Shown: positions 23,901-49,854 of the stretch, in pieces | Numbering within the stretch: position 1 is the first letter of the stretch | How the letters are laid out: every line of letters begins with the position of its first letter | Assembly: GCA_038212275.1 (NCBI GenBank) | Contig: JBBQUR010000020.1 | Location: forward strand, 25,288-89,287 | DNA length: 64,000 nt | Direction of reading: 5' to 3' | From: Planctomycetota bacterium | Lineage (GTDB): Bacteria > Planctomycetota > B15-G4 | Translations under genes and position numbers: made by a program | Notes under the pieces: model-generated | Told to the model about the DNA's origin: nothing | Databases searched by the model: none | Seen by the model: the letters and a program-made list of their open reading frames with translations, nothing else

Positions 23901-25778
23901 TTACGGCTGGCCCGTGGCCTTCATGCAGTTGGACAGCGAGACGCCCTTCACGGCGGCCGCGTCCTGGATGCCGTACTGGAAGTAGAGCGAGACACCCGTC
24001 AGGTTCGGAACCGTGGGCCACACGATCGGCAGCGCGAGCGCGCCCACCGAGTTGGTGCCCAGGTCCAGCTGGAGGATGATCGGAATCGTCTTCAGCGTGC
24101 CGCCCTTGAACGGAACCGGCGTGGAGGAGACCGACACCAGCAGCACCGCGAGGGCGTTGGCCTTGGCGTTGGTCAGCTCGAGCGAGTTCACGCTGTTCGG
24201 CGTGAGCGGGCCCGTGCCGGTGAGCGTCGGATACGCCCGGTCGGCCGGAAGCGCGCAACCTTCATCGGTCCACGGATTGTCCGTCGTGGTGAAGCCGAAC
24301 GCCGCGGAGGCCGTCCAGTCGGAGAGCCAGCTCTGGCCGGGAGCGAACGCGCCACGGTACTTGGCTGCCGAGAAGAAGCCGTCGGCCGGAGCCGTCGCCA
24401 CGCTCGTGAGCGCCGAGGCCGCCGGACGCGGATCGAGCGAGATCACGGGAAGCATGTTCTTGCCGCCCTTGACGACGAGCGGGCCGCGGGTGATCGCCGC
24501 GATCGGCTGATCAACCAGGGCAGAGCCGGCGTTCACGTTGTTGTTGGCCGGGTTGAAGACGCCGACAGTGGTCGCCTCCGTGTAGGCCGACGCGAACAGG
24601 TTGCGGAAGAAGACGCTGTCCTTGATCTCCGCGAGGTTGCCGTTGACCTGGGACTGGTTGAGGGCGGAGAACACCGCCGGGGTGGTCCACGTGTTCAGCC
24701 ACGAGAGCGTGCCGTTGAAGCCGTAGCCGGCGCCGCCGTCGCCATCGACGTTGTCGAGCTGGACGAGACGCTCGCCCAGGTCCATCCAGATGCAGTTCCG
24801 GTACTGCACGCGGGCGTTGTCGCGCCACGCCGTGCCATGGTCACCGTCGATCGGCTGGCCGATGCAGGTGAAGTTGTAGATCGAGGCCGTGGTGACGGGG
24901 AGCCAGTCGGAGTTCTCCGCGCCGTCGGTCTCGAAGAGGTTGTCGCCGACACCCGAGCCCTGCGACGCGTTGGCCGCATAGCCCTGCACGAGCAGGCCGA
25001 ACTGCGCCTTGCCGCGCCAGCCCTGGTCGATGTCGAAGCTGTCGTCACCGATGTTCCAGATGTTGACGTACTTCAGGTTGACGGTGCCGCCCCAGATCTC
25101 GATGCCGTCATCGACGTTGTTCATGATGTCGATGTGGTGGATGTCCGTCTCGCGACCGACGCCGCCCAGCGAAAGGCCGTTGAGCTCGTTGTTCAGCGCG
25201 ACGACCTTGCCGCCGTAGCGCAGCGACAGGTACTCGATCGTGCCGCTGTTGTCGTCGTCGTCACCGCCGCCGTAGAGCACGTTCGGGTCGCCGGGGAAGG
25301 CAGCCACGAGCCCCTCCATCGCGCCGATGTTGTTCGCATTGGGCGTCGGCACGTTGCCGAGGATGGCGTCCTCCGAGATGTAGCCCTTGCCCATGATGGT
25401 GAGGTTGCCCCACTCGTTGACCGCCTCGCGCCATGTGCCGGTCTTCGGGTTGCCGCCGACCCACGTCGCGACGTCGGCCTTGGAGGTCATGATCACCGGA
25501 TTGTCCTGCGTGCCGAGCACGAAGATCTTCGCGCCGCGCGCCACGGCCAGGCTGCCGCCGATGTTGGTCGTGCTGGCGACGATCGTGCCGGCCTCGATCG
25601 TCAGGGTCGCACCCGGGAGCACGTAGATCTGGGTCTGCAGGTTGTAGGTGTTGTTCGCTGTCCACGTGGTGGACACGGCGATGTTGCTCGACACGAGAAT
25701 ATCAGCGGCCTGCGCCGAGCCGGTCAGGCCGACTCCCAGCGCGACGGCTGCTGCTGCTGCTTTGATGGAACTGCTCAC
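23901..25778 (-). CDS. Secreted beta-helix-like protein of the TonB-receptor-associated family, with C-terminal PFKGG domain
   Basis: GAGGAG before GTG25778; AQA signal; GTQDNPVIMTS, WGNL, YGGGDDDDNSGTIEY, NELNGLSLGGVG, DDGIEIWGGTVN, DDSFDIDQGWRG. Confidence 0.88.
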   Translation of the reverse strand: MSSSIKAAAAAVALGVGLTGSAQAADILVSSNIAVSTTWTANNTYNLQTQIYVLPGATLTIEAGTIVASTTNIGGSLAVARGAKIFVLGTQDNPVIMTSKADVATWVGGNPKTGTWREAVNEWGNLTIMGKGYISEDAILGNVPTPNANNIGAMEGLVAAFPGDPNVLYGGGDDDDNSGTIEYLSLRYGGKVVALNNELNGLSLGGVGRETDIHHIDIMNNVDDGIEIWGGTVNLKYVNIWNIGDDSFDIDQGWRGKAQFGLLVQGYAANASQGSGVGDNLFETDGAENSDWLPVTTASIYNFTCIGQPIDGDHGTAWRDNARVQYRNCIWMDLGERLVQLDNVDGDGGAGYGFNGTLSWLNTWTTPAVFSALNQSQVNGNLAEIKDSVFFRNLFASAYTEATTVGVFNPANNNVNAGSALVDQPIAAITRGPLVVKGGKNMLPVISLDPRPAASALTSVATAPADGFFSAAKYRGAFAPGQSWLSDWTASAAFGFTTTDNPWTDEGCALPADRAYPTLTGTGPLTPNSVNSLELTNAKANALAVLLVSVSSTPVPFKGGTLKTIPIILQLDLGTNSVGALALPIVWPTVPNLTGVSLYFQYGIQDAAAVKGVSLSNCMKATGQP

Positions 25779-25874
25779 GGGGTTGGACTCCTCAACAGGT
25801 TCGCTCCACGGATCGCGGAGGAGACACTCTCCTTCGCCTGATGGCTCCGTGTTCCGGCAAGCTAGAGACGCGAT

Positions 25875-26020
25875 GTGGGCCGGACGTGAAGAGCCGGTGC
25901 GATTTCGCCCAATTCCGGCGGGCTGATCGCGAACAGGTCGGCCACGCACGACGCGACATCTGCAGCCTGGAGTGAATGCCGTCAGCCTGCGGCGAAGACG
26001 GCGTGAAGATCGCCACAAGA
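25875..26020 (-). promoter_or_regulatory. 11-bp-periodic direct repeats upstream of the TonB module
   Basis: On the + strand: GCGAAGA 25992, GTGAAGA 26003, CACAAGA 26014; also GTGGGC 25875, GTGAAG 25886, GTGCGA 25897. Confidence 0.45.
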
Positions 26021-26168: not shown

Positions 26169-26996
26169 TCAGTGCGCCTCGCTCGTCGTCGCGCCGGCTG
26201 CCGTCGCCTTGCGTGCGTGCAGGTCGTAGCGGTCGCCGCGCGTGAGGATGTGGAGGCGGATGTTGATCAGCGAGATGGGCTCATTGGCCTTCAGCGCATC
26301 CACCGACGAGAACTCGAGGTCGTGGGCATCCACGATCGTGACGCCGCCGCTGCCCACCACTTCCAGGCTGTCGTCCGGGCCGATGAACACCGAGGTGTCC
26401 TCGTCGAGGCCGACGCCGATGGCGAAGGGGTTGTAAGCCAGCGCCGTGAGCAGGCGCCCGAGGCGGTCGCGCTGCCGGAAGTGCTGGTCCACGATGATGC
26501 GATTGGTGAGGCCGAGCCCCGGCGACAGGGCGACCATGCGGCGGTGCGGCGTGGCGCCCTCGTCGCCGTACGCGATCATGTGCTCGCAGACGAAGGCCGC
26601 GCCGGCCGACGTGCCGGCGATGTGCATGCCGTCGGCGTTGCGCTCGCGCAGCAGCGTGGAGGCGCGCGTGCCGCCGAGCGTCGTCGCCAGCCGCAGCTGG
26701 TTGCCGCCGGTGATGAACACGCCGTCGGCTTCCTCGATGAGTTCCAGCCAGTCTTCGCGATGACAGTCCACGCGCGTGTCGAAGGGCACCACGACGGCGC
26801 GCCGCACGCCCAATTCCAGCAGCGTCTCCTCGTAACCCGGGCCGGTGCTCTTGTCCCCCGACGCCGTCGGGATGACCACGATGCGCGCGCGGCGCCCGCC
26901 GCACAGCTGCACGAACTGTTTGAGGATGGTCGGGTCCTTGACCTTGTCGATGCCGCCGCCGATGGGAACGATGAAGCCGCGCGTCAAGGTGGGCAC
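26169..26996 (-). CDS. cphB: Cyanophycinase (peptidase S51)
   Basis: IGGGIDK, IPTAS, FITGGNQLRL, catalytic GTSAGA, DQHFRQRDRLGRL, GVGLDEDT. Start is GTG26996 or TTG26987. Confidence 0.95.
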   Translation of the reverse strand: MPTLTRGFIVPIGGGIDKVKDPTILKQFVQLCGGRRARIVVIPTASGDKSTGPGYEETLLELGVRRAVVVPFDTRVDCHREDWLELIEEADGVFITGGNQLRLATTLGGTRASTLLRERNADGMHIAGTSAGAAFVCEHMIAYGDEGATPHRRMVALSPGLGLTNRIIVDQHFRQRDRLGRLLTALAYNPFAIGVGLDEDTSVFIGPDDSLEVVGSGGVTIVDAHDLEFSSVDALKANEPISLINIRLHILTRGDRYDLHARKATAAGATTSEAH

Positions 26997-27096
26997 TCCG
27001 GGGAGAGACGGGCCGGGGGCCGGCGGACCGGGAGCGCCCGGCCAGCCGTCGCAGGCCTGCCGGTCTCGGGGCGCCGGCAGCTCGTGATGGCGGCCA

Positions 27097-27125
27097 AACA
27101 TCGCCCACGAATGGCCTTCGGTCAA
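27097..27125 (-). promoter_or_regulatory. Putative sigma70 promoter of cphB (TTGACC-17-GATGTT)
   Basis: Same architecture as the cphA promoter candidate. Confidence 0.4.
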
Positions 27126-27213
27126 CCGCGGAATGCGCGGCCAGCGGCGCGTTGCCGATGCGCGCCGAGTCGTCGCGTCGGCAGCGCGCCGTGACGGAGC
27201 ACGCTGCGAGCCG

Positions 27214-27909
27214 TCAGCGCCCGTGCAGTGGCTCGGGATCCGAAGCGGGAGGCACCTCGGGAAGTGCGGGAAAACGAGCACGCTCCTGCCAGCGCTGGCT
27301 GCCCTTGTTCTCCCCACGATCCAGGAGGACGAGCGGCCCGAGCGTACGGGGCACGACGAAGAACGCGAAGGGCGTGACGCGGTCGCCACCGTCATCAGCA
27401 TCGGCCGACCAGAAGAAGGCCCCCGCTGACGGCGGCTCTCCGCCACTGCCGGGCGGCCCGTTGTTCAACGTCTGATAGCCGAGTTCCTTGATGATCAGCC
27501 GGGCCGCACCATCGCCGGAAGGAATGCCGGCACCGCCCGCAGGCACAGTCCCCGCCGCGTAACCCGCCGAATTGACCGAGGCGCCGCCGAAGATCGCGAC
27601 GACCATGCAGCGCTCGAAGTCCACCACCGGCAGGCCGGCCTTGTTGTGGTAGAGGCTGTCGTCGGCCTTCGACGCCTCGCCCAGATGTTCGAGCCACAGC
27701 GCCGCCCACTCGGCCTGCGTGGTGATGCGCAGGCAGCGCGCGTCGGCGATGTGACTGTGCGCGCCCGTCAGCGTCACGAGCGCGGGCAGCGTCGAAGGCG
27801 GCGCCTCCTGACGCTCACGAGGCTGCATCTCCGCGGCGCAGCCCAGCACGAGAAACAGTCCGCCGACAGCGACAAGCTTGTTCTTCCGCACACCCTGCAT
27901 GCTGCGCAT
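27214..27909 (-). CDS. Putative lipoprotein, PrcB C-terminal-like domain
   Basis: AGGAGG before ATG27909; lipobox LVLGC; ITTQAEWAALW...PVVDFERCMVVAIFGG...GY and VTPFAFFVVPR. Confidence 0.65.
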   Translation of the reverse strand: MRSMQGVRKNKLVAVGGLFLVLGCAAEMQPRERQEAPPSTLPALVTLTGAHSHIADARCLRITTQAEWAALWLEHLGEASKADDSLYHNKAGLPVVDFERCMVVAIFGGASVNSAGYAAGTVPAGGAGIPSGDGAARLIIKELGYQTLNNGPPGSGGEPPSAGAFFWSADADDGGDRVTPFAFFVVPRTLGPLVLLDRGENKGSQRWQERARFPALPEVPPASDPEPLHGR

Positions 27910-28137: not shown

Positions 28138-28142
28138 TCCAC

Positions 28143-29783
28143 TCACGGCATGAAGTGCGCCGACACCACGTTGGAGATGCCGACGCCCTTGGGCTGCGCC
28201 GGATCCTGCACAATGACCTGCAGCAGCACATCGAAGGCGCCGAGACCTCCCGGCACGCCGGGGATCAGGACCTTTCCCTGCGCGTTGGTCGTGAGCGTGA
28301 ACGCCGCGCCGAGGCCGAGATCCGGCACCAGCGTGCCGCCCTTGAAAGGGAGACTCGCTGCCTGCAGCGAGACGGCCAGCAACGCGGGCCGGTTCGCCGG
28401 CGCGTTCTTCAGCAGCAGGTCGGCCTTGCCGCCCGGACCCAGCGTCGTGCCGCACAGGCTCAGCTTGCTGACGCCCGGGCCGCCGAAGCCGAGGTCCGCC
28501 TGGCAGACCAGCGGCGAGATCACCGACACGGTGCCTTGCTTGCCGTTCGCTTGGGTGGCGTAAGGCGCGCCGATGAGCATCTCCGGCCAGCCGTCACCGG
28601 TCACGTCGCCGAGGTGCGAGAGCGCGGTGCCGAAGGAATCGCCGAGTTGCCCGGTCATGTCCGGCAGCAGCGCAGCGCCGGTCGCGAGCGACAGCACCCG
28701 CGCAAAGCTCGGCTTGCCGGGCGTGAGCGGCGCGCTGCCGACGAGGAGGTCCGGCGTGCCGTCCTTGTCCACGTCGCCCGCCACATCGAGGACCACGCCG
28801 AACTGGTCGCTCATCGCGTCGCCGGTGAAGACCCACGAGGCCGCGCCCGCCGGGCCACGGAAGACGCGCACCGACCCGCGTCCGCCGTTCTCGCTGTAGG
28901 CCCCGACGGCGATGTCGGCAAAGCCGTCGTGGTCGAAGTCGCCGAGGCCCGCGATCGCCGTGCCGAAGAGCGTGAGTTCCCCGGCGCCGTAGCGCGAGTA
29001 GAGCACCGAGCCGTCGACGCCCGAGCGCACTTCGACGCGCCCCGTCAGGTCACCCAGGCTCTGGTCCCCCGGTACGCCGACGACGAAGTCCGGCTTGCCG
29101 TCGCCGTTCACGTCGCCCGCGGCTGCGACGCACCAGCCCATGCGCTGGTTGGCCGAGCCGTAGAAGGTGTTGAGCACGACACCGGTGGCGCCGTCGATCA
29201 GCCGCGCGCGGCCCGCGAGCGGCACGAGCGCGCTGCTCTCGTAGTCGGGCGCACCGACGACGAAGTCCGGCCGGCCGTCGCCGGTCACGTCGCCCACACC
29301 GGCGATGGAGAAGCCGAAGCTCTCCTTCGACTTGGTGCCGTTCACCGTGTAGAGCTTGCTGCCGGTCAGTCCGGAGAAGACCTGCACCGAGCCCGTGTCC
29401 GTGCCGTTGACGTCCGTGCCGAGTGCGCTGATGGCGACGTCGCCGTGACCGTCGCCGTTCACGTCGCCAAGGCCGGCCACCGCGTAGCCGAACTGTTCGT
29501 TGACCGCCGCACCGTGCAGCGAGAGCAGCAGCGACCAGTCCTTGCCGGAGTAGACGTAGGCGCTGCCGCTGTTGGCGCCGAAGTCCGTGTCGCCGGCCTC
29601 GCCGACGAGGATGTCCGGCACGCCGTCGTGGTCGACGTCGCCAGCCGACGCGACGGCGCGTCCGAAGTGGCCCTGCGGCGCGGTGCCGCTGAAGACGTGC
29701 TGACTGAGCTGTGCGCGAGTCTCGGCGCAGAGCAGGGCGCTGCCGGCGAGCGCGAGGAGACCGGCGATGCGAAGCTGAATCAT
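28143..29783 (-). CDS. Secreted FG-GAP (integrin-alpha-like) beta-propeller protein with C-terminal PFKGG domain
   Basis: Signal peptide; seven FG...GDVxxDGxxD..VGA repeats; C-terminal domain at 28143-28505. Confidence 0.92.
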   Translation of the reverse strand: MIQLRIAGLLALAGSALLCAETRAQLSQHVFSGTAPQGHFGRAVASAGDVDHDGVPDILVGEAGDTDFGANSGSAYVYSGKDWSLLLSLHGAAVNEQFGYAVAGLGDVNGDGHGDVAISALGTDVNGTDTGSVQVFSGLTGSKLYTVNGTKSKESFGFSIAGVGDVTGDGRPDFVVGAPDYESSALVPLAGRARLIDGATGVVLNTFYGSANQRMGWCVAAAGDVNGDGKPDFVVGVPGDQSLGDLTGRVEVRSGVDGSVLYSRYGAGELTLFGTAIAGLGDFDHDGFADIAVGAYSENGGRGSVRVFRGPAGAASWVFTGDAMSDQFGVVLDVAGDVDKDGTPDLLVGSAPLTPGKPSFARVLSLATGAALLPDMTGQLGDSFGTALSHLGDVTGDGWPEMLIGAPYATQANGKQGTVSVISPLVCQADLGFGGPGVSKLSLCGTTLGPGGKADLLLKNAPANRPALLAVSLQAASLPFKGGTLVPDLGLGAAFTLTTNAQGKVLIPGVPGGLGAFDVLLQVIVQDPAQPKGVGISNVVSAHFMP

Positions 29784-29967: not shown

Positions 29968-31611
29968 TCAGTTCAGGAAGTGCGCGAGCACCACGTTGGA
30001 GAGCGCGAAGCCCTTGGCCTGCGCCGGATCCTGGATCACCACCTGCAGGAAGACGTCGAAGAGTCCGAGCCCGCCGGGAATGCCGACCAGGTGCATCGCA
30101 CCGTGCGTGTCGGTCGCGAGCACGAACGTCACGCCGCTGGCAAGGTTCGGCACGATCACTCCGCCCTTGAAGGCCTTGGCGGACGCCTGCAGCGACGCCG
30201 CCAGCAGCGCGGGCCTGCTCACCGCCGCGCCCTGCAGCACGATGTCCGCCTGGCCCGCCGCGCCGAGCGGCGCGCCGCACATCGAGAGGTGCGCGAGACC
30301 CGGGCCGCCGGAGCCGAGGTCGGCCTGGCACCAGAGCGGCGAGTAAACCGTGACCTGGCCCTGCGTGGCGCCGACGATGGCGTACGGCGCGCCGACGAGC
30401 ACGTCCGGCCAGCCGTCGCCGGTGACGTCGCCCGCGGCGGCGAGGGCGCTGCCGAAGCCGGAGATGTTCGGGCCTGTCGGACTGCCGTATAGCGGCAGGC
30501 CCGTCGCGCCGGAGAGCACGCGCACGTAAGGGAGCTTGCCGCCGTTCGGCGGGAAGGTGCCGACGAGCAGGTCGGCGTGACCGTCCTTGTCCACGTCACC
30601 GGCTGCGGAGACGGCCGTGCCGAAGCGGTCGTCAGGCGCGTCGCCGACAAAGATCCACGAGGCCGCGCCGCTCGGGCCGCGGTACACGTGCGCCGCGCCG
30701 GCAGCGCCGGACTCGCCCGAGGCGCCGACCAGCAGGTCCGCGAAGCCGTCGCCATCCACGTCGCCGACACCGTCCAGCGCCGTGCCGAAGAAGGACGCGG
30801 CGTGCGGGCCGAAGCGCTGGTAGAGCAGCGCGCCGCCGTTGCCGGAGCGCACGTCGATGCGGCCGGTTGCGGCGCCGAGAATGGCCTCGCCGGGCGCCCC
30901 CATCGCGACGTCGTCGCGGCCGTCGCCGTCCACGTCGCCGGCGCCTGCCACCACGCTGCCCAGCCGGTCGCCTTTCTTGCCGACGAAGGTGAGCAGCGTC
31001 GCGCCCGTGTTGCCCGAGACGACGATCACGCGCCCCGCATCCGGCGTGAGCCCGAGCACGCCGTCGTAACCGGGCGCGCCGATGACCATGTCCGGGATGC
31101 CGTCGAGGTTCACGTCGCCGGCCGCGGCGATGGAGAGGCCGAAGTTCAAGCCGGCTGCGCTGCCGGTCAGCGCATAGATCAACACGCCGGTCTTGCCGGA
31201 GTAGACGCGCACCGCGCCGGCCTGGGCGGCGACGCTGCTGTCGTAGGGCGCGGCCACGGCGAGGTCCGCGAAGCCGTCGCCGTTCACGTCACCCGGGCCT
31301 GCCACGGAGCGGCCGAACTGCTCGAGCGTCGTGCCGCCGTGCAGCACGCGCAGCAGCGACCAGTCCTTGCCGGAGTAGACGAAGGCGCTGCCGGAGGCGT
31401 AGCCGTTGACGCTGTCCGCGGGCGCGCCGAGCAGGATGTCGTCGATGCCGTCGGCATTCACGTCGTGCGCGGCCGCCACGGCCTGGCCGATCTGCGCCGA
31501 TTGCGTGATCGACGTGAAGACGTGCTGGGAGATCTGCGCGTGAACCGGCGCGCAGACCAGCGCGCTGCCGGCGAGCGCGAGGAAACCGGCCGTGATGTGA
31601 GATTGATGCAT
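29968..31611 (-). CDS. Secreted FG-GAP beta-propeller protein with C-terminal AFKGG domain; tandem paralogue of 28143..29783
   Basis: Collinear with the paralogue (IxGxLALAGSAL, SQHVF, VYSGKDWSLL, CQADLG, QDPAQ.KG). Confidence 0.92.
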   Translation of the reverse strand: MHQSHITAGFLALAGSALVCAPVHAQISQHVFTSITQSAQIGQAVAAAHDVNADGIDDILLGAPADSVNGYASGSAFVYSGKDWSLLRVLHGGTTLEQFGRSVAGPGDVNGDGFADLAVAAPYDSSVAAQAGAVRVYSGKTGVLIYALTGSAAGLNFGLSIAAAGDVNLDGIPDMVIGAPGYDGVLGLTPDAGRVIVVSGNTGATLLTFVGKKGDRLGSVVAGAGDVDGDGRDDVAMGAPGEAILGAATGRIDVRSGNGGALLYQRFGPHAASFFGTALDGVGDVDGDGFADLLVGASGESGAAGAAHVYRGPSGAASWIFVGDAPDDRFGTAVSAAGDVDKDGHADLLVGTFPPNGGKLPYVRVLSGATGLPLYGSPTGPNISGFGSALAAAGDVTGDGWPDVLVGAPYAIVGATQGQVTVYSPLWCQADLGSGGPGLAHLSMCGAPLGAAGQADIVLQGAAVSRPALLAASLQASAKAFKGGVIVPNLASGVTFVLATDTHGAMHLVGIPGGLGLFDVFLQVVIQDPAQAKGFALSNVVLAHFLN

Positions 31612-31692: not shown

Positions 31693-31726
31693 CAGATCCG
31701 GATCGCGCGCGAAAAGGTCTCAGCCG
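31693..31726 (-). promoter_or_regulatory. 34-bp element identical to 29865-29898; overlaps the kinase stop codon
   Basis: Direct sequence comparison. Confidence 0.6.
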
Positions 31727-34700
31727 GGCGCGCAGGCCGCCAGAAGCTCCTCGAATTCCGGCAGCTCCCGCAGCGAGGCCAGGTCGTCCGAGGTGGCGAG
31801 GTTCGTCCGGTCGTCGTAGCCCGCGGCGATCGCCTGGCGCAGAAGGTCGAGCGCTCGCGCACGGATGACATCGGCCAGCCCCGCGGCCTGTTCCGGCCCC
31901 ACGGCACCCGCGGCGGAAGCATCGCCCGCGGCGGATGCGCCGGGTGAGGGGCCCGCAGCGGTGGCCGTCAGCGCGGCGGCCGTCAGCGCGGCGGCCGTCA
32001 GCGCGGCGGCCAGCTCGGCGTAGAGGCCCGCCCCCAGGCGCACCTGCAGCGCGGTGCCCGGCGGGTCGGCGAGATAGTCGTCGGCGGCGGCGCGCGCGGC
32101 GTCCCAGTCCTGCAGTTCGCGGCACATCGCGGAGAGCCGGCGATGCTGCCCGCGCAGCGTGGTCCTCCAGGTCGTGTTCGTCGGCGCGCGCTCCGCCGCG
32201 AGGCGCTGTTCCTGCGCGGCGCGCTCGAGAATCGGCCGCGCCTCGGCCAGCGCCCCCTGCTGCGAAAGCAGCTCCGAACGGTTGGTGAGCATGAGCGCGA
32301 AACGCGCGCGCATGTCGGGCGAATCGGGCGCCGCGTCCAGCACGCGCTCCTGCGCGGAGATTGCTTCGGCCAGCAGCGCACCGGCTTCCTCGAAGCGTTG
32401 CTGCTGCAGGCACGCCACGCCCAGCCCGTTGGCGGACATCGCGAGGAGCGTCAGGTTGTCCATCGAGTCGGGGAATTGCTCGACCAGCTCGCGCTGACCC
32501 TGCAGCGCCTGCCGGTAGCGGACCTCCGCCTCGTCGACGCGTCCGAGTTCGCGCAGCAGCAGCCCGAGGTTCTGACGCAGGCTGGCCAGTTCCTGGCGGC
32601 AGACCCGGTCGGTCGGGAGGATCTCCAGCGCCGCCAGATAGTGCTGCTCGGACGCGTTGTAGAAGGCCTCGGCCTCGGGCGTGCGATCGAGCGAGCGCAT
32701 CAGCCCGCCCAGATTGTTCTGCAGGTAGGCCACGCGGCGCTCGTTTTCCGGATCGCCGGGCTGCTCGTCCGCAATCCGCAGGAGCAGCTCCAGCGCTTCG
32801 CGCAGCGGCACCTCGGCTTCCTGCAGCTGGCCCGCGCGCAGCAGTCTCACGCCCACGGAGTTGGTCAGGCTCGCGATGCTGCTGGCCGTGTGGAGGTCTC
32901 CGGGTGCGATCTCCTCGCGGCGCCGGAACAGCTCGCGCGCGCGCGCGTCGGCCTCGTCGGAGGCCGGATAGTCGCCCGCGGTCTGCTCCGCCAGCCCGAT
33001 GTCCATCCACACGTCCCCGAGGTCCGTGAGAAGCTCGGGCGTGTCCGGATGCGAGGCGTTCAGCTCCTCGAACAGCGCGCGCGCCTCCTCGAAGGCCGAG
33101 CGCGCGATCTCCACGTCCTGCGACACCATCGCCAGCTCGCCGATGCGTCGCGCGGTCCGTCCCGCCGCCTGGCGCAGCTCGGGCACGTCCCGGTGGCTGC
33201 TCAGCAGCTCGCGGTAGAAGCCGAGCGCGTCCTGCAGCAGTTGCCGGCGCACGGGTCCGACCTGCGGCACGTTGGCCAGCGACTTGTCGCCGACACGCGC
33301 GAGCATCGTGTCGACGGCCCCCATCGCGCGCTGCAGGTCCATGCGCGCCGCATCGCGCTGTGCAGCCGCCTCCTCGCCTTGCAGGCGCGCCTGCTCTCCC
33401 TGAAAGGTCGCCTCGTCCAGCGCGGCCCGGATCGCGATGTTGGCGCGCCGCTCCCACAGGCCCCAGGCCAGCGGTCCGCCCACCACGAGCAGGACGCTCA
33501 TGACCAGCGCGGTGCTGGCCGCCGGATGGCGCTGCACGAAGCGGCGCGCGCGCAGCAGCATGCCGGGGCGCCGCGCCTCGACGGGCCGGCGCTGGAGCAC
33601 GTTGTCCAGGTCGCGCGCGAATTCGCCGGGGCCTGCGTAGCGGCGCGCGCAGTCGGCCTCCATCGCCACGAGGCACACCGTTTCGGCGTCCCGCGGCACG
33701 GCGGGATTGCGCACGCGCAGCGGCGCCGCCGCACCCGCAAGGATCGCTGCGCGCAGGCGCTGCTCGTCCTCCGCCGCAAAAGGCGTGGACAGAGCGAGCA
33801 GCTCGTACAGCGTCACGCCCAGCGAGTAGACGTCGCTGCGCGCATCGAGGCTCGTCACCTCGCCACGCACCTGCTCCGGCGACATGTAGGCCAGCGAGCC
33901 GAGCTGGCTGCCGCTGCGCGTGATGCGGCTGCTGCCCTCGGCGGCGGCCAGGCCGAAATCGAAGAGCAGCACGCGGCCGTCGGGCGTGAGCATCAGATTG
34001 CTGGGCTTCACGTCGCGGTGCAGCACGCCGCGATCGTGCGCATGCTGCAGCGCCTGGGCCGCCTGCCCCACCAGTCGCAGGCAGGCCTCGACCCAGCTGC
34101 CCGCAAAGCTGCGCGCGCCAGTATCGCTGCCGCTGCCGCGGCTGCCGCGCGAGTCACGCCCATCGCGCGCACCTTGCGCCGCCGGCTCCGGAGCCGGCGC
34201 CCCCTCGCGCCGCGCGACGACGGCCACGACCGCGCGCTGCAGGTCGCGTCCCGTCAACGCGGCGGGATCGCGGCTGTGCAACTCCGCAAGCACCTCGGCA
34301 AGCGTCGCGCCGCGCACCCATTCCATCGCGAAATAGGGCACGCCGGACTCTTCACCGACGGTGTAGATCGGCACGATGCCCGGATGCGCGAGGCGCGCGA
34401 CGGACTCGGCCTCGCGGCGGAAGCGCTCGCGCGCTCCGGGGAAAAACAAGTGCTCGGGTCGCACGAGCTTGAGCGCCACGCGACGCTGCAGCGAGGTCTG
34501 CTCGGCGAGGTAGACCACGCCCATGCCGCCGCCGCCGAGCCGCTGCAGCAGGCGGAACTCGCCGAGGCGTTCGGGGATGGCTTCGGGCGCGGCGCCGTTG
34601 GCGTCGCCACCGAGTTCGAGCAGGCCCGCGGCGTGAAGCATCTGCAGGCGTTCGCGGATCGCAGGCGCGAGGTCCGGTCGCCGCGCGCAGACGTCCTCGA

Positions 34701-34797
34701 AAACCGCCGAGCCCTCCTCCTCGACGCGCTGCAGGCATTCCTCGACGAGTGCCCGGATCTCGAGCGCGCGCTGGCTCTGTCCGTCGCCCTGGGTCAT
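31720..34797 (-). CDS. Hanks-type Ser/Thr protein kinase with TM helix and C-terminal TPR repeats
   Basis: LGGGGMGVVY, VALK, HRDVKPSN, DFGLA, YMSPEQ, SDVYSLG; TM segment; TPRs; GGAG before ATG34797. Confidence 0.95.
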   Translation of the reverse strand: MTQGDGQSQRALEIRALVEECLQRVEEEGSAVFEDVCARRPDLAPAIRERLQMLHAAGLLELGGDANGAAPEAIPERLGEFRLLQRLGGGGMGVVYLAEQTSLQRRVALKLVRPEHLFFPGARERFRREAESVARLAHPGIVPIYTVGEESGVPYFAMEWVRGATLAEVLAELHSRDPAALTGRDLQRAVVAVVARREGAPAPEPAAQGARDGRDSRGSRGSGSDTGARSFAGSWVEACLRLVGQAAQALQHAHDRGVLHRDVKPSNLMLTPDGRVLLFDFGLAAAEGSSRITRSGSQLGSLAYMSPEQVRGEVTSLDARSDVYSLGVTLYELLALSTPFAAEDEQRLRAAILAGAAAPLRVRNPAVPRDAETVCLVAMEADCARRYAGPGEFARDLDNVLQRRPVEARRPGMLLRARRFVQRHPAASTALVMSVLLVVGGPLAWGLWERRANIAIRAALDEATFQGEQARLQGEEAAAQRDAARMDLQRAMGAVDTMLARVGDKSLANVPQVGPVRRQLLQDALGFYRELLSSHRDVPELRQAAGRTARRIGELAMVSQDVEIARSAFEEARALFEELNASHPDTPELLTDLGDVWMDIGLAEQTAGDYPASDEADARARELFRRREEIAPGDLHTASSIASLTNSVGVRLLRAGQLQEAEVPLREALELLLRIADEQPGDPENERRVAYLQNNLGGLMRSLDRTPEAEAFYNASEQHYLAALEILPTDRVCRQELASLRQNLGLLLRELGRVDEAEVRYRQALQGQRELVEQFPDSMDNLTLLAMSANGLGVACLQQQRFEEAGALLAEAISAQERVLDAAPDSPDMRARFALMLTNRSELLSQQGALAEARPILERAAQEQRLAAERAPTNTTWRTTLRGQHRRLSAMCRELQDWDAARAAADDYLADPPGTALQVRLGAGLYAELAAALTAAALTAAALTATAAGPSPGASAAGDASAAGAVGPEQAAGLADVIRARALDLLRQAIAAGYDDRTNLATSDDLASLRELPEFEELLAACAPG

Positions 34798-34975
34798 CGC
34801 GCTCCGGTCTGCCTCAGAGGCCCCTGCGCAACCCGCCTGGCCGCCACGGCCGCGCAGTCTATCCGGCCGCCGACCGGCCCGTGCACGCGGCGCTCCGTCG
34901 CGTGGCGTACGGCGGCCCTCACGGCTTCCGGAAGCATCGAGTCCCGACACGTCGACGGCGGGTTAGGATTCCGCC

Positions 34976-37397: not shown

Positions 37398-38417
37398 ATG
37401 AACACGATGGTCATGTCCCTGGACACGTTCAACCGAGGCCGCTTGCGCACCGCCGCGTGCGCGTTGCTGCTGCTCGCCGCCTTCGGGCCGCGCGTCCACG
37501 CCCAGGTGGTCTTCGCCAAGGCGCCGAGCCCGGCCGGCGGCGTGAATGCCTCCTCGTGGGTGCCTCCGGACGGCAGCGACTCCGACATGTACTCGTGGGA
37601 CGACTTCACGCTGGCCACGACGCAGACCATCACGGAGGTGCGCTGGCGCGGCGGCTACGCGCTCGGCGCGACCTACGGCAAGGCCACGGACTTCCGCGTG
37701 TCCTTCTTCGCGTCCAACGTGACCGGCTTCGAGCCGAAGATCGTCGCCATCCCCGAGAACGAATCCCAGGAGCAGGCGCTGATCAACGTCCACACGAACA
37801 ACAATGCGGGCGAGAGCTTCGCGGGCGTCTTCGGCGGCGTGGCGATGTACGACTACCACTTCACGCTGCCCGTCCCGTTCGTCGCGCAGGCCGGCGTGAA
37901 GTACTGGTTCCGCGTCGTGTGCGGGCAGCCCGTCTACCCGGACTGGGGCATGGCCACGAGCGATCCCGCGGGCAGCCACTTCCGCTACAGCACCGGCAGC
38001 ACCATGTTCCACAACTACTCGCACGACCTGGCGTTCTCGCTGCATGCGCGCTGGGCCGACCTCGGGGGCGCCATCGCCGGCACGTCCGGCGTGCCGGCAC
38101 TTGGCGGCGCCGGAAGCCTGACGAGCGGCTCGGCCGACACGCTCACGTTGACCTCGGCGAGGCCCTCGTCCGCCGTGACGCTGCTCTTCGGCGTGTCGAA
38201 ACTCGGCGCGCCCTTCAAGGGCGGCACGCTGGTGCCTGATCCGTTCCTGCTGCTCGCCTTGACCAGCGACGCGCAAGGCCACGTGTCGCTGCCCTTCACG
38301 CTGCCGGCGGGCCTGCCCCCCGGAACGTCGCTCTACTTCCAGGCCTGGCTGCCCGACCCGGCCGCGGTGAAGGGGCTTGCCGCGAGCAATGGCCTCGCCG
38401 GCACGACGCCCGGATGA
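37398..38417 (+). CDS. Secreted beta-sandwich protein with C-terminal PFKGG domain
   Basis: Signal ending VHA-Q; DDFTL...TITEVRWRGGY...KYWF...DLAFSL domain; C-terminal domain at 38052-38417. Confidence 0.85.
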   Translation: MNTMVMSLDTFNRGRLRTAACALLLLAAFGPRVHAQVVFAKAPSPAGGVNASSWVPPDGSDSDMYSWDDFTLATTQTITEVRWRGGYALGATYGKATDFRVSFFASNVTGFEPKIVAIPENESQEQALINVHTNNNAGESFAGVFGGVAMYDYHFTLPVPFVAQAGVKYWFRVVCGQPVYPDWGMATSDPAGSHFRYSTGSTMFHNYSHDLAFSLHARWADLGGAIAGTSGVPALGGAGSLTSGSADTLTLTSARPSSAVTLLFGVSKLGAPFKGGTLVPDPFLLLALTSDAQGHVSLPFTLPAGLPPGTSLYFQAWLPDPAAVKGLAASNGLAGTTPG

Positions 38418-43179: not shown

Positions 43180-45711
43180 CTACGGCAGGAAGCTGAGCTT
43201 CACCGCATTGGTGATGGCGACGCTCTGCGGCAACGAAGGATCGAAGACGCGTGCCTGCAGGTACACGTCCGCCGGCCCCATGCCGCCGGGAATCAGGATC
43301 TGGATCAGGCCCGACGGCGGCGCCACCAGACCGATGTCCAGGAACGAGGGCACGGTGACCAGCGTGCCGCCCTTGAAGGGCTGCGGGTTGAGCGAGAAGG
43401 AGGCCGAGAGCAGCATCGGCTTGCCGGGAGGCAGGTGGGCCAGCGTCATCGTCGCGTACTGGCAGCTTGCCAGCGGCTGACCGCACACCGCGAGCGTCGA
43501 TGCACCGGGGCCCTGGAAGCCGAGGTCCGTCTGGCACGTGACGCAGGCGTCTCCGAAGCCGTCGCCGTCGAGATCGGCCTGATCCGGATTGGGAAAGTCG
43601 GGACAGTTGTCCCAGTCGTCGGGCCAGCCGTCGCCGTCGGCATCCAGCTGACTGCGGCGCACGTCGGAGAGTCGCACGTCGTCGAAGGTCCAGCCCCTCG
43701 CGCGGTGCTGGTTGCTGACGTCGCTGCCGAGGCGGAAGACCGGGCTCACGGAGCTCACGCGGAAGGCGGGCCCGCGCAGCGTGAAGGCATTGGCGGACTT
43801 GCCGGCATTGCCCGTGCGCAGCTCGAGCAGACCCTGGTTCGGCGCCCACTCCGCCTGCACGTGACGGAAGCCGTTCACGTTGTCCTCGGCGTTCGCGTCG
43901 GGAAACGGGGCGACGACCTCGTGACGCCCGTTGAGGCGATCGACCACCACGAAGTGGAGCTGTCCGCCTTCCACGTACAGATCCATGCTGTTGCTGGTGT
44001 CGTGCACCGTGCCGTAGGTGGTCGTGCCACCCACCACCGCCGCGAACACGCCTGCACCTTCGCCGAAGGGACTGTTCATCGTGGGCTGCGTGGTCACGAG
44101 CTGGCTGGGAAGCTGCTCGCCCCCGGGACCTGTGCCCGCCAGCGAGCGCCCGTCCGCGTCCAGGTAGAAGATCGCGGACTGCGTCGAGGTGCACGAGCGA
44201 TAGAAGATGTCCGAGAGGCCGTCGCCGTTCAGGTCGCCCAGCGTCATGCTCACGGCGCTTTCCACCTTGTAGGTCAGCGTCTCGGGCGTCAGCAGGTCGC
44301 TGAAGCCCATCGGATTGAGCGGGCCCAGCAGCACGGTGGAGGCAGGCGCGTTCACCAGTCCCTGGCGCCAGTTGGCCACGGCCACGTCCACGAAGCCGTC
44401 GTTGTTGACGTCCTTCACGGCGGAGACGGTGAACGGGCGCGGCGTCTTGATGATGCCGTCGGGCTCCGGATTGAAGGTCCCGTCGCCGTTGTTGAGGTGG
44501 ATCGCGACGCGGCCGAACAGCGAGCCGCTGCCGTCGTCGTACAGCGGTTGAGTGAGCACGGAATCGAGGAACCCGTCGCAATTCACGTCGCCGAAGGAGG
44601 CGCCCAGCACCTGATTGCTGCGATCCGAGGACAGGAGCGACAGGTTCTCGAAGGTGTAGCCGGTGGGCCCGATCCTGCCGATGAGTACGCGGCTCGCGGG
44701 CTCGCCGAAGCTGCCGTAGAGCACGTCCAGCACGTCATCGCCGTTCACGTCGCCGGCGGCGATGGCCTCCGCGCCCGCGATGATGTTCGCGTACGGGAAG
44801 TCCATGATCGTGAAGTTGCCGGAGCCGTCGTTGGCGAAGCCCACCACGGCCGGCGTGTTCTGCGCGTACGAGGCGACCACGATGTCGAGGTCGCCGTCCT
44901 TGTCGAAGTCCGCGAGCACGAGTCCCTGCGGAAGGTCCATCTCGAGGGCCATCTGCGGCTGGTAGATGCTGCCCTTCTTGAAGGGGCCGCGGAAAATCTG
45001 CACCTCGCCGGGAGTGGGCGTGAGCGGGTTGGCCAGCGTGCTGCCCTGGTGCATCGACACGACGAGGTCGAGGTAGCCGTCGCCGTCCACGTCACCGATC
45101 TCGAGGCCGCGCGGCACCTGCGACTTGAAGCGCGCCGGCGCCGAAAAATCGAGGCCGTTGCCGCTGTTGAAGTAGATGCGTGAGAGCGAGCCGGGCGTGA
45201 CGCCAAAGGGCTCGCCCACGATGAGGTCGTTGAAGGCGTCGCCATCCAGCGACTTGGTGCCCTGCAGGCTGAAGAGATGCTGGCGCGCCGAGGTCTCCGG
45301 CCCCGGCTTGACCCACATCTCGAGCGTGCCGTGGTTCAGGTCCAGAGCGCCGGTGCTGTACATGCCCACCGCGGCAGCCGCCGGCATGACGACGCAGCCA
45401 GTGTTGAAGACGCCGCCGCCGACGGGCAGCAGGCCGCTCTTCACCACGTTGGTGGTGCCCACCGCAGTGAGCATGGCGGGTGTTCCCTCGAACTGGCCGA
45501 GGACCACCGTGTGGCTGTCGAGTCCACCGATCGGCGCGTGTGACAGAGGCAGCCCGCTCGGCGGGCACTGGGCGCTGGCGGCGCAGGCCACCAGCGACAG
45601 GGTCGTCGTGCACGCGATCAGCGTGCCGCGGATCGGAGTGCCTGGGCGCGCGCCGGCGTCGGGCGTCGGGGTCTGCTGCAACGGCATCGGGGCGTCGGCT
45701 CGGGGCTTCAT
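43180..45711 (-). CDS. Secreted FG-GAP/VCBS protein with LamG-like segments, TSP3 repeat and C-terminal PFKGG domain
   Basis: Signal ending ASA-Q; DxxxDGxxD repeats; DADGDGWPDDWDNCP..PNPDQADLDGDGFGDAC (TSP3); C-terminal domain at 43180-43536. Start is ATG45711 or ATG45687. Confidence 0.88.
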   Translation of the reverse strand: MKPRADAPMPLQQTPTPDAGARPGTPIRGTLIACTTTLSLVACAASAQCPPSGLPLSHAPIGGLDSHTVVLGQFEGTPAMLTAVGTTNVVKSGLLPVGGGVFNTGCVVMPAAAAVGMYSTGALDLNHGTLEMWVKPGPETSARQHLFSLQGTKSLDGDAFNDLIVGEPFGVTPGSLSRIYFNSGNGLDFSAPARFKSQVPRGLEIGDVDGDGYLDLVVSMHQGSTLANPLTPTPGEVQIFRGPFKKGSIYQPQMALEMDLPQGLVLADFDKDGDLDIVVASYAQNTPAVVGFANDGSGNFTIMDFPYANIIAGAEAIAAGDVNGDDVLDVLYGSFGEPASRVLIGRIGPTGYTFENLSLLSSDRSNQVLGASFGDVNCDGFLDSVLTQPLYDDGSGSLFGRVAIHLNNGDGTFNPEPDGIIKTPRPFTVSAVKDVNNDGFVDVAVANWRQGLVNAPASTVLLGPLNPMGFSDLLTPETLTYKVESAVSMTLGDLNGDGLSDIFYRSCTSTQSAIFYLDADGRSLAGTGPGGEQLPSQLVTTQPTMNSPFGEGAGVFAAVVGGTTTYGTVHDTSNSMDLYVEGGQLHFVVVDRLNGRHEVVAPFPDANAEDNVNGFRHVQAEWAPNQGLLELRTGNAGKSANAFTLRGPAFRVSSVSPVFRLGSDVSNQHRARGWTFDDVRLSDVRRSQLDADGDGWPDDWDNCPDFPNPDQADLDGDGFGDACVTCQTDLGFQGPGASTLAVCGQPLASCQYATMTLAHLPPGKPMLLSASFSLNPQPFKGGTLVTVPSFLDIGLVAPPSGLIQILIPGGMGPADVYLQARVFDPSLPQSVAITNAVKLSFLP

Positions 45712-45898
45712 ATCGTCGGACGGGTGGCCCTGAAGTCTACCCGCAAGGCACGATCGGCGTGGGGCTTTCGCGGGTCGGAGGGCACCCCCGGAACTCCTTG
45801 TTCCCTCATCGGTGCACGCTCCCATCAGCCTTGAATGCCTGAGGGTCGACGGCAGGAGACCGCCCCCCCTTGGACCGGGATGGTCCCGCTCCTGTCAC

Positions 45899-45994: not shown

Positions 45995-46015
45995 GGGTGG
46001 CATAGAATCCGCGCC

Positions 46016-47478: not shown

Positions 47479-47526
47479 TGACGCCTGCGTGCGCCGCCGG
47501 GGCGCGGTCCGCGTTACGCTCAGCGC

Positions 47527-49854
47527 GTGCGATCCGACCTGCCCGCAAGCGACCTCCGGCGCCCGACCGCTGTCGCGGCGCTGCTCGCCCTCATGGTGGT
47601 CAGCCTGCGACTCGGGCTGCCCGACCTCCGGCACGGCCTGCCCTTCGTCTTCCACTCGGACTTCGTGCAGATCGAGCAGGCGGCGCAGCTGCTGCGACAG
47701 GGCTGGTTCACGAACGACAGCATCTATCCGCTGCCGCTCGTGTGGCTGTACGCGGGCGCGGCCTGGCTGGCGCACGTGCTCGGTGCACTCGGCGGCGCCG
47801 CGGGCGAGGGCATGGACGCCTTCGCGCAGCGCTTCACCGACCCGGCCGTGCACCACCCGCTCGGGCGCTTCGTCGACGTGGCCTGCGCTGCGCTGCTCGT
47901 GCCGGCCACGTACCGGCTCGCCCGCGTGCGCTTTCCGCGCGGCGTCGCGCTGCTCGCGGCCGCGGTCATCGCCGTGGACCCGGTGCTCCTGCTCACGGCG
48001 CGGCAGGTGCGGCCGCATGCGCCGGCGGTGCTGTGCCTGGCGCTGGCGGCGCCCTCGGTGCTGGCCCTTGCGCGCCGCGGCGCCGGCCCGCGGCAGGGCC
48101 TGCTCGCCGGAGCGCTCGTCGGCATGAGCGCCGCCGTGTTCCAGGTGGCGTCGCTGCAGGGCGTGGCGCTGCTGCTCATCGTGGCGGCGTGCGTGCGTCC
48201 CGCGCGGCGCGCGCTGGCGACGGCGTGCACGGCGCTGGCCGGCATGGCGGGCAGCGCGTGGCTGGTGAGCGTGCTCGCGGGCGCACCGGCTTCCGTGCGC
48301 GCGCCCTCGGGCGCAAGCCTCGACGACGCGGCGCACTCGGCCGGCTTCCTCATGCGCATGCTGGACTGGGGAATGACCGGGCCCTTCCAGCAGGCCGGAA
48401 AAGCCTGGTTGCTGGCAGAGCCAGCTCTGTGTCTCGGCGTCGCGGGCGCCGTGCTGCTGGCGTTGCGCACCGCGCGCCGCCGGCGGGACGCGCTCGCAGC
48501 ACCCGCACCGCCGGGCGCGTCGGCCCCCGGCCTGGTGGATCTGCTGCTCTACGGAGCGTGTCCGGCCATCGTGCTCGCCTGCACGGCCACGATGCTCGGG
48601 GCGCACGTGCGCTACGTCGTCGCGGCCCTGCCGTTTCTTGCGACGCTCGCTGCGGCGGCGTGTCTCTCGGCGCGACCCGCCCTTCCGCGCATCGCCGCGG
48701 TGGCGCTGCTGCTCGCGGTGCCGCTGGCCACGACGCTGCGGACGCGCGCGCTGCTGCACACGGCGGACTCGCGCTTCGTGCTGGATGCAGCTCTGCAGTC
48801 GATCGGGGCGGGCGAGGCGCCGCTCGTCATCGCGTTGCAGGACACGCTGGTCCTGGACCGCAGCGCGCTGCCGCGCGGCGTGCTCGAGTTTCCGCCGCAC
48901 GGCGACCTGTCGCGCTGGGACGAGGCGAAGTTCGTGCCGCGCGCCGAGCTCCGGGCCTGCGGCGCCGCGGTCTACGCACGCGTGCCCGGTGCGCGCTGGG
49001 CCACCGGGCCGCTCGACGCGGCCTCGATGCAGCGGCTCGGCTTCCAGCTGTGGGGCACGCTGGGCGACGCGCCGACGAGCCGCCTGTACCTGCCCGACGT
49101 CCCCGATGCGCTGGTCATCGACGCGTGGTCCGCGAGCCGCACGGGCCCGCCCATCGAGCTTTGGATCGCGAACGGTCCCGCCGGAGACCTGGCGCGCTCG
49201 CGACTCGCGACGGCGGACCTCGCCGCGGCGGCCGCATCCGATGCCGACGCCGCCGTGGCCGCCACGCTCGCGCGGATCGCGAGCCAGCGCGCGGCACGCT
49301 CGGGTGCAGGTGCGGGTGCAGGTGCGGGTGCAGGTGCGGGTGCAGGTGCAGGTGCAAGTGCGGGTGCAGGTGCAGGTGCAAGTGCGGGAGCGGGTGCGGG
49401 CCGGGGCGCAGCGAGCGGCGCGCAAGGCTCCGGCATCGTCGATCCGGCGCTGCTCGCGAAGCTGCTGGCGCTGCCGACGGACCGCTGGCAGGCGACGGGA
49501 GGCGCTCTGCCGGGTGCGGCGCACGCGCCCACGCTCTCGGCGCGCGGCACGATGCGCCACGACGAGCCCGTGCTGCTGCTGGTGGACGGCGCGCCGCCCG
49601 GCAGCACGTGCCGGCTCGTGCTCGGCGCGCGCGAACTGCGCGCCCCGTTTCGCGGCGGCACGCTCGTCCCCGCGCCGGACCTGCTCCTGGACGGCCTGAT
49701 CGTGGGCGACGACGGTCGACTCGCCCTCGGCGCCCTGTGGCCGCACAGTTCGCCGGCAGGCCTCACCCTCTGCGCCCAGGTCTGGGTGCAGGATCCCAGC
49801 GGGCCGCACGGCTACTCGGCCACGAACGCCGTCGTCGGCACGAGCCCCGACTGA
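47527..49854 (+). CDS. Polytopic membrane protein, GT-C (ArnT/PMT-like) candidate, with (GA)n linker and C-terminal PFRGG domain
   Basis: TM1 followed by GLPFVFHSD, YPLP, many TM segments, RY...LPFL; Gly-Ala linker at 49303-49401; C-terminal domain at 49486-49854. Confidence 0.7.
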   Translation: MRSDLPASDLRRPTAVAALLALMVVSLRLGLPDLRHGLPFVFHSDFVQIEQAAQLLRQGWFTNDSIYPLPLVWLYAGAAWLAHVLGALGGAAGEGMDAFAQRFTDPAVHHPLGRFVDVACAALLVPATYRLARVRFPRGVALLAAAVIAVDPVLLLTARQVRPHAPAVLCLALAAPSVLALARRGAGPRQGLLAGALVGMSAAVFQVASLQGVALLLIVAACVRPARRALATACTALAGMAGSAWLVSVLAGAPASVRAPSGASLDDAAHSAGFLMRMLDWGMTGPFQQAGKAWLLAEPALCLGVAGAVLLALRTARRRRDALAAPAPPGASAPGLVDLLLYGACPAIVLACTATMLGAHVRYVVAALPFLATLAAAACLSARPALPRIAAVALLLAVPLATTLRTRALLHTADSRFVLDAALQSIGAGEAPLVIALQDTLVLDRSALPRGVLEFPPHGDLSRWDEAKFVPRAELRACGAAVYARVPGARWATGPLDAASMQRLGFQLWGTLGDAPTSRLYLPDVPDALVIDAWSASRTGPPIELWIANGPAGDLARSRLATADLAAAAASDADAAVAATLARIASQRAARSGAGAGAGAGAGAGAGAGASAGAGAGASAGAGAGRGAASGAQGSGIVDPALLAKLLALPTDRWQATGGALPGAAHAPTLSARGTMRHDEPVLLLVDGAPPGSTCRLVLGARELRAPFRGGTLVPAPDLLLDGLIVGDDGRLALGALWPHSSPAGLTLCAQVWVQDPSGPHGYSATNAVVGTSPD

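Follow-up and report, generated by a model that had tools for sequence, protein, structure and literature searches.

Why do six proteins with different N-terminal parts, encoded close together in one planctomycete genome, end in the same domain? The window, which is the whole stretch of DNA that was analysed, is 64 kb long (64,000 nucleotides). A sequence-only reading of it had proposed that the shared tail is an export, docking or surface-anchoring signal, analogous to C-terminal tags known from other bacteria.

Six C-terminal tails and their passengers

All six tails were confirmed, four on the minus strand and two on the plus strand. The Cys-pair subtype ends protein B (28143..28505, minus strand), protein C (29968..30330, minus strand) and protein E (43180..43536, minus strand). 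The W subtype ends protein A (23901..24272, minus strand, stop codon included), protein D (38052..38417, plus strand) and protein F (49486..49854, plus strand). The six tails were aligned and a profile was built from them; the tail of A, itself a member of the profile, matches it at E 2e-51. The alignment comprises 127 columns, of which 12 are invariant, including F-x-G-G, Q, D and N. The tails share 26–40% identity with that of protein A, contain few charged residues and match their own profile at E 1e-45 to 1e-51. The motif [PA]F[KR]GG[TV][LI] is present in all six (as PFRGG in protein F). A late motif also exists as described, with the corrected spacing Q-x4-D[PA]-x4-G-x3-[ST]N instead of Q-x3-D, and its Asn lies 7–9 residues ahead of the last residue. 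The division into two subtypes is real: B, C and E carry CQxDLGxxGPG...CG with a Cys pair, and A, D and F have a Trp instead. The likeness of the tails is far beyond chance; the profile matches elsewhere in the genome, and the GC3 of the domain-bearing frames is of the coding type (median 0.88).

The passengers are of several kinds. Protein B (passenger 28506..29783, minus strand) and its paralogue protein C (30331..31611, minus strand) each consist of a signal peptide and an FG-GAP propeller (PF01839, E 2e-46 and 1.5e-51, respectively). In protein D, a signal peptide precedes a DUF7901 β-sandwich (PF25470, E 1.4e-5; passenger 37398..38051, plus strand, within a longest ORF from 37266). Protein E (43537..45825, minus strand) combines a long N-region and a signal peptide with FG-GAP repeats and one thrombospondin type 3 repeat (TSP_3, E 2e-4 in Pfam). 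The passenger of protein A (24273..26018, minus strand) shows a signal-peptide-like stretch, AAAAAVALGVGLTGSAQA, inside the longest ORF. Of the passenger types read earlier, Pfam did not confirm a LamG domain in E or a β-helix in A, which has no Pfam match at all. Signal-peptide-like N-termini were recognised by eye in five of the six proteins, in agreement with the earlier count.

The sixth, protein F (passenger 47527..49485, plus strand), is a polytopic inner-membrane glycosyltransferase of the PMT_2 (GT-C) type (PF13231, E 4e-9). Besides eight hydrophobic segments, it has a soluble portion and a (GA)n linker. It cannot be exported, yet it carries the domain, which is also kept in its single full-length orthologue among the 40 relatives searched with a stricter first look. 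Protein F was considered as a conserved machine part and rejected as core machinery, because only 1 of 40 relatives has a full-length orthologue.

Copy number, position and passengers beyond the window

This genome is 91% complete, and the six-tail profile matches it 129 times at E<=0.01, with non-query copies at E 1e-38 and weaker. At E<1e-5, 117 ORFs bear the domain; with roughly 3,230 genes called, this is about 3.6%. Of 41 related genomes, 40 contain the domain as well, often in about 100 copies each; most relatives have from tens to more than 100, and eight have at least 106. Across the phylum, 37 of 201 sampled genomes have it, and the cultured Engelhardtia mirabilis Pla133 has 67 matches. 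Worldwide, at least 9,029 protein clusters at 50% identity match.

The position of the domain is nearly constant. In 115 of the 117 copies, no more than 20 residues separate the end of the domain from the stop codon (median 2). The end itself follows the pattern [S/T/A]N-x6-last residue: the motif was found in 98 of the 115 C-terminal copies, and in 77 of these 98 exactly seven residues follow [STA]N. Pro is the final residue of 84 of the 115 C-terminal copies, compared with 14% of 1,546 control ORFs. Among the best 150 of the 9,029 cluster representatives, which are biased towards the profile consensus, the domain is C-terminal in 149, exactly seven residues follow [STA]N in 139 and a terminal Pro is present in 122. 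The two exceptions in this genome comprise one copy placed after a signal peptide and before a metallo-β-lactamase-fold domain, and one internal copy. Upstream of the domain, no conserved cleavage site was found, just a preference for Pro and small residues in the five positions before it (−1 to −5).

These data bear on the less likely possibility that the domain is a ligand-binding or adhesion module of the CBM- or Ig-like adhesin type, which would attach diverse exported proteins to prey, to a substrate outside the cell or to the glycan layer of the cell itself with no dedicated sorting machine. CBMs and adhesin repeats usually occur at any position and in tandem. The planctomycete domain, in contrast, nearly always occurs once, at the very C-terminus, with an end fixed to the residue, and two matched stretches occur in only 7 of the best 150 of the 9,029 representatives. 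Its conserved residues are mostly turn Gly and Pro, and no obvious aromatic binding platform is seen in the alignment. The copy on the polytopic membrane protein and the two copies in non-C-terminal positions, however, suit such a module, and binding modules or hydrolases are common among the passengers.

The passengers of 113 copies fall into 64 unrelated BLAST clusters. Pfam searches with 60 of them returned FG-GAP, DUF642/CBM_4_9, phytase-like, phosphoesterase, sulfatase, GSDH, Kelch, Laminin_B, TSP_C, β-helix and PD40 families, which are typical extracytoplasmic modules, and no family for 31. Signal peptides were predicted for 78 of 113 passengers versus 596 of 1,546 controls (odds ratio 3.6, p 3e-10) with a crude predictor that has a control rate of 39%; at least 19 of its 35 negatives among the passengers have a clear signal peptide by eye. 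The large copy number, the C-terminal bias and the excess of signal peptides that were proposed as checks of the sequence-only reading are all observed.

Predicted fold and comparison with described families

The AF2 model of the protein D copy (126 residues) has a pLDDT of 95.7 and a pTM of 0.89, and shows 11 strands. According to this model, the domain is an autonomous all-β Ig-like sandwich of about 120–125 residues, predicted with confidence. The fold is a generic sandwich, with a best VIA Z of 8.7. The best matches, the macroglobulin (MG)/Ig-like domains of TEP1, C3 and alpha-2-macroglobulin, resemble it in sandwich topology (rmsd 2.3–3.0 over 89–94 residues) with only 4–14% sequence identity, and their Z scores of 8.0–8.7 lie in a range common for models that have no true match. 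These alignments omit model residues 1 to 12–17 and leave the first strand uncovered. A generic Ig/macroglobulin-like sandwich is also what many CBMs and adhesins possess, which is compatible with a binding role.

The earlier statement that the tail belongs to no named family holds in the databases searched. Pfam and NCBIfam contain no family over the tail, either in the six full proteins or in 43 tails. Foldseek against the PDB with the model returned nothing at E<=1e-3, and the best PDB sequence match (E 0.11) is meaningless. In the ESM Atlas, the 30 clusters closest to the domain are all without a Pfam 38.1 family, and precomputed Pfam annotation is empty for relatives whose passenger belongs to no known family. 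Full-text literature searches returned no paper on this domain, and a term search of the Saltatorellota preprint gave no mention of C-terminal domains or secretion.

The compact and very confidently predicted fold with few charged residues would also suit a structural cap, that is, a stabilising, folding-helper or oligomerisation domain that has no localisation role and spread as a convenient 3´ cassette. Recombination at the 3´ end could yield a C-terminal bias, and the C-terminal rule could partly reflect such spread instead of function. We consider a cap improbable: one and the same helper would have to serve 64 unrelated passenger clusters, many of which are self-sufficient folds (propellers and sulfatases, for example), and the terminal Pro and the PFKGG hairpin are under purifying conservation across the 9,029 clusters, which points to an interaction that these have in common.

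Among known tags, the T9SS CTD of Bacteroidota (PF18962, TIGR04183; type B, TIGR04131) is close in organisation: in both cases unrelated Sec-exported proteins, from tens to more than 100 per genome, carry a single Ig-like β-sandwich at their very C-terminus. The CTD is described in PMC11285876 as a compact seven-strand (3+4) Ig-like sandwich, and secretion depends on a conserved loop motif as well as on the C-terminus; the planctomycete domain similarly combines a conserved loop motif with a conserved C-terminus. It differs in being larger (about 125 residues and 11 strands, with an extra N-terminal hairpin), in its phylum and in having one copy attached to a polytopic membrane protein. A highly diverged CTD served by a cryptic T9SS would account for a C-terminal Ig-like sandwich on many proteins with signal peptides, and the PorU CTD does align with the model (Z 6.9, rmsd 3.3 over 94 residues, within the generic range). 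We regard this explanation as very improbable, given that none of the 43 tails matches PF18962 or another T9SS model of Pfam or NCBIfam even at E<=10. In the 91%-complete genome, no match was found to PorV, for which a control matched, or to SprA (Sov), GldM (PorM) and the PorU-type C25 peptidase, for which none did. A precomputed PF18962 match in one protein (P0223) was pursued as a T9SS lead and rejected; it lies at residues 74–135, in a PPC-like region outside the tail.

Other tags are less similar. Dockerins of cellulosomes are likewise mostly C-terminal, present in single copy on many unrelated secreted proteins and subject to occasional positional exceptions, and by analogy the planctomycete domain may serve docking rather than catalysis. 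The dockerin, however, is a duplicated calcium-binding helix-loop module, a fold unrelated to the β-sandwich. No dockerin profile of Pfam matched the tails, and among 62 proteins of 1,200 residues or more, a self-BLAST search for a cohesin-like scaffold, which is a weak test, detected none with internal repeats. PEP-CTERM/exosortase and related TM-anchor signals are also lineage-specific C-terminal tags on many exported proteins, whereas the planctomycete tails end in a β-strand and Pro. The tag is not PEP-CTERM-like, as had been argued, because it has neither a TM helix nor a basic tail; exosortase (PF09721) had 0 matches in the genome (a control matched in one genome). Slam (PF04575) also had 0 matches. 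The searches for SprA, GldM, the C25 peptidase and Slam, four of the six for machinery, are weak negatives because no control matched. The PPC domain (pre-peptidase C-terminal domain, PF04151) is a small β-sandwich that is also C-terminal on secreted proteins; it has no sequence match to the tail, and P0223 contains PPC domains and the tail as separate modules.

Possible role of the domain

On the available evidence, we lean towards the domain being a new C-terminal localisation tag, which would work like a T9SS CTD or a dockerin and belong to neither family. The fixed end is the reason for a slight lean towards a recognised C-terminal signal. This planctomycete lineage appends one copy of the domain, ending in ...[S/T]N-x6-Pro-COOH, to well over 100 unrelated Sec-exported proteins. 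The passenger protein would leave the cytoplasm by Sec, and the domain would fold outside the cytoplasm; the Cys-pair subtype is suggestive here, through a likely disulfide in the first hairpin. A common envelope partner may then recognise the conserved PFKGG hairpin together with the fixed C-terminus, and bring the passenger to the cell surface or retain it there. The function itself is inferred: that a partner recognises the domain at all, what this partner is, and whether the passenger crosses the outer membrane or is kept at the surface. The analogous export, docking or surface-anchoring signal of the sequence-only reading is supported in every respect that was checked: no described domain of known function matched, the copies extend far beyond the window, and they favour the C-terminus of proteins with signal peptides.

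The glycosyltransferase copy and the two non-C-terminal copies qualify this picture. Export across the outer membrane accounts for them less well than docking or anchoring does, and a pure docking or binding module is therefore a serious rival to a localisation tag. Neither the neighbourhoods of 105 domain genes nor the machinery searches of the genome revealed a translocon, peptidase or receptor partner, and this failure to find sorting machinery is in keeping with a binding module. The recurrent neighbours among 457 genes near the 105 called domain genes are regulators only, namely Ser/Thr kinase-TPR proteins (15/35, p 5e-5) and ECF sigma factors. The other genes of the window encode ExbB/ExbD/TonB, a TonB-dependent receptor, kinases, sigma factors and metabolic proteins, with no machinery candidate. 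Secretins have eight matches in the genome; they are near-universal in the phylum sample (200 of 201 genomes, with 1–13 matches each), so their presence cannot discriminate. More specifically, and only tentatively, the tag could mark the cargo of an as yet undescribed Planctomycetota pathway for secretion through the outer membrane or attachment to the surface. This pathway would be unrelated to T9SS, would serve 3–4% of genes in the expanded lineages and would have its parts among unannotated genes.

Little is known of how planctomycetes deliver proteins to their unusual cell surface, and this lineage is known for shape-shifting and fragile envelopes. With a tag on about one gene in thirty, the surface and secreted proteins could be listed straight from the genome. 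The tag would also be a bait for finding the machinery or receptor, for example in the cultured Engelhardtia mirabilis. The domain family is large and unnamed, and merits a database entry. If a new machine stands behind the tag, it would represent a new bacterial sorting system; if the domain is a docking module, it would represent a new principle of surface display in Planctomycetota.

The shared domain and its copies in the genome

Six proteins encoded in the window (G000:C20:25288-89287, in a source genome of 4.65 Mb, 40 contigs, 70% G+C and 91% completeness) end in the same domain of ~120–125 residues, which confirms the central observation of the sequence-only reading exactly where that reading had located it. 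The ORFs are A (23901-26018, minus strand), B (28143-29783, minus), C (29968-31611, minus), D (37266/37398-38417, plus), E (43180-45825, minus) and F (47527-49854, plus). Alignment of the six tails contains 12 invariant columns. The [PA]F[KR]GG[TV][LI] motif is present in all six; the late motif is also present, although the spacing first proposed for it was one residue short and the correct form is Q-x4-D[PA]-x4-G-x3-[ST]N. The division into two subtypes holds: the tails of B, C and E start with a Cys pair (CQxDLG...CG), and those of A, D and F carry a Trp at that place. Pfam bears out most of the proposed passengers, with FG-GAP in B, C and E, TSP_3 in E, DUF7901 in D and PMT_2 in F, but finds no family in A; the "beta-helix" of A and the "LamG" of E were unconfirmed. 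Five of the six proteins exhibit signal-peptide-like N-termini when judged by eye, as had been claimed. Protein F has 8 hydrophobic segments, and a (Gly-Ala)n low-complexity linker of ~35 residues (~49350-49460, plus) separates its soluble PMT_2 part from the C-terminal domain. On the strand opposite the tail of gene D lies an overlapping 94-aa ORF whose GC3 is high (38018-38299, minus); rather than being a gene, it most likely arises from the high G+C content.

A profile built from the six tails yields 129 matches in the genome at E<=0.01. An hmmsearch of all stop-to-stop ORFs assigns the domain to 117 ORFs at domain E<1e-5, which corresponds to ~3.6% of genes (~3,230 called). In 115 of these ORFs, no more than 20 residues (median 2) lie between the end of the domain alignment and the stop codon. 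The conserved [STA]N is followed by exactly 7 residues in 77 of the 98 copies that could be scored, the motif being missing from the last 16 residues in 17 of the 115. The terminal residue is Pro in 84/115 copies, compared with 14% of 1,546 control ORFs. Exact PFKGG is found in 60 of the 115 copies, and the CQxDLG type in 8.

Passengers and distribution

The remainders of the domain proteins are highly diverse, with 113 passengers forming 64 BLAST clusters. Among the 60 best-scoring copies outside the window, Pfam identified FG-GAP/VCBS propellers, DUF642/CBM_4_9, phytase-like, phosphoesterase, sulfatase, glucose/sorbosone dehydrogenase, Kelch, Laminin_B, TSP_C, beta-helix, PD40 and DUF7948 families; 31 of the 60 passengers had no Pfam family. 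Signal peptides were called in 78/113 domain ORFs versus 596/1,546 controls (odds ratio 3.6, p 3e-10) by a predictor that scans candidate starts and whose crudeness is evident from the high control rate. At least 19 of its 35 negatives have, by eye, an evident signal peptide that terminates in A-x-A/Q; thus, the actual share among domain ORFs is near 85%.

The domain occurs in 40 of 41 related genomes, with at least 106 matches in each of eight relatives. Counts per genome are 40–100, 3–52 and 0–5 in the families f2, f4 and f5, respectively. Of 201 genomes sampled evenly across the phylum, with at most 21 candidates scored in each, 37 possess it, and these span at least 13 families. Close relatives in named records derive from Planctomycetota MAGs, one Phycisphaerales MAG and the cultured Engelhardtia mirabilis Pla133, whose genome holds 67 matches at E<=1e-5; the source annotation of relatives is "hypothetical protein" or names only the passenger. 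A search of 1.84 billion cluster representatives returned 9,029 matches at E<=1e-3 and 5,147 at E<=1e-10. Among the best 150 of the 9,029, a set skewed towards the profile consensus, the domain is C-terminal in 149, the 7-residue end is present in 139 and the terminal Pro in 122.

Fold, relatives and neighbouring genes

The AlphaFold2 model, based on a 43-sequence alignment, is all-beta with 11 strands and very confident (pLDDT 95.7, pTM 0.89). The PFKGG motif is located at a hairpin turn. The Trp/Cys position and its partner ~19 residues later both lie in the first hairpin, where, judging from the secondary structure, the Cys pair of that subtype would be able to form a disulfide. None of 43 tails matches a Pfam or NCBIfam model even at E<=10, a PDB sequence family is likewise lacking, and Foldseek of the model against the PDB gave no match at E<=1e-3. 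An exhaustive structural search retrieved macroglobulin and Ig-like domains at Z 8.0–8.7, a range that, according to the search tool, is commonly reached by models that have no true relative. The 30 nearest ESM Atlas clusters all lack a Pfam 38.1 family; their taxa, where known, are mostly Planctomycetota. Full-text searches of the literature and a term search of the Saltatorellota preprint turned up no description of the domain.

The same structural search aligned the PorU CTD of the T9SS to the domain model at Z 6.9. T9SS CTD and dockerin profiles do not match the tails. Searches of the genome for SprA, PorV, GldM, C25 peptidase, exosortase and Slam gave no match, with a positive control matching only for PorV and exosortase, and a self-BLAST of 62 proteins of >=1,200 aa, which is a weak test, found no internal repeats that would point to a cohesin-like scaffold. 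By analogy, the domain would resemble the T9SS CTD and the dockerin in its working, but it is a member of neither family. A cryptic T9SS is very improbable.

No partner of the domain was found. Eight secretin-domain matches are present in the genome (contig and position C4:228700, C12:86394, C10:88938, C9:127431, C12:17937, C6:123492, C6:131949 and C9:175187); however, secretins occur in 200 of the 201 phylum-sample genomes, at 10–13 per genome in f2 of the same order, and such near-universality makes co-occurrence with the domain uninformative. Ser/Thr kinase-TPR proteins are enriched beside domain genes genome-wide (15/35 family members, p 5e-5), and ECF sigma factors likewise. These are the only two types of recurrent neighbour, which suggests regulation, not transport.

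Several other genes of the window were also observed. Between genes C and D (31723-35599), a TPR-repeat Ser/Thr kinase of 1,076 aa and an ECF sigma factor are encoded divergently. One cluster (14301-22244, minus) encodes a TPR protein, TonB, ExbD, a long ExbB of 483 aa whose N-terminal part is DUF3450-like, and a TonB-dependent receptor carrying a CarboxypepD_reg domain at its N-terminus; it adjoins gene A, with a single TPR gene (22427-23731) intervening. A 953-aa cyanophycin synthetase adjoins a second Mur-ligase-type protein of 640 aa (6661-11523, minus), and a gene of peptidase S51, a family named for dipeptidase E, lies between genes A and B (26172-27446, minus). Cyanophycinase is a member of the S51 family. 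A second GT-C-type protein of 1,010 aa (55420-58449, plus) fuses a TMTC/PMT-like O-mannosyltransferase region (DUF1736) to many TPR repeats.

Proposed role of the domain

A single copy, a residue-exact extreme C-terminal end, more than 60 unrelated and mostly signal-peptide-bearing passengers and a lineage-wide expansion together form the signature of a localisation tag, not of a catalytic or substrate-specific module. That the domain is purely a structural cap is improbable. We favour, with moderate confidence, a tag that would fold after export of the passenger by Sec, whereupon a shared envelope partner may recognise its fixed C-terminus and its PFKGG hairpin; surface display or release of the passenger would be the outcome. 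The most thoroughly studied parallel, the T9SS CTD, requires both a loop motif and its C-terminus for secretion (PMC11285876), in keeping with reading the domain as a recognised tag.

Alternatively, the domain may be a docking or binding module instead of an outer-membrane export signal. The domain is retained on protein F, a polytopic GT-C glycosyltransferase, and on the only full-length orthologue of F that a search of 40 relatives yielded (43% identity). Only two of the 117 copies are not C-terminal: in C7:48390-49715, a signal peptide is followed by the domain and then a metallo-beta-lactamase-fold domain; in C28:566-2224, the domain is internal, with a TSP_C-like part before it and a further ~170-residue domain after it. 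Together with protein F, these copies show the domain to be functional as an autonomous module, and a docking or binding role accounts for them more easily than outer-membrane export. We regard this role as a possible but clearly less probable explanation than the localisation tag. The sorting or anchoring interpretation of the initial reading is supported as far as computation reaches, and the domain is a large family without a name, representing a new variety of the known idea of a C-terminal sorting or docking module.
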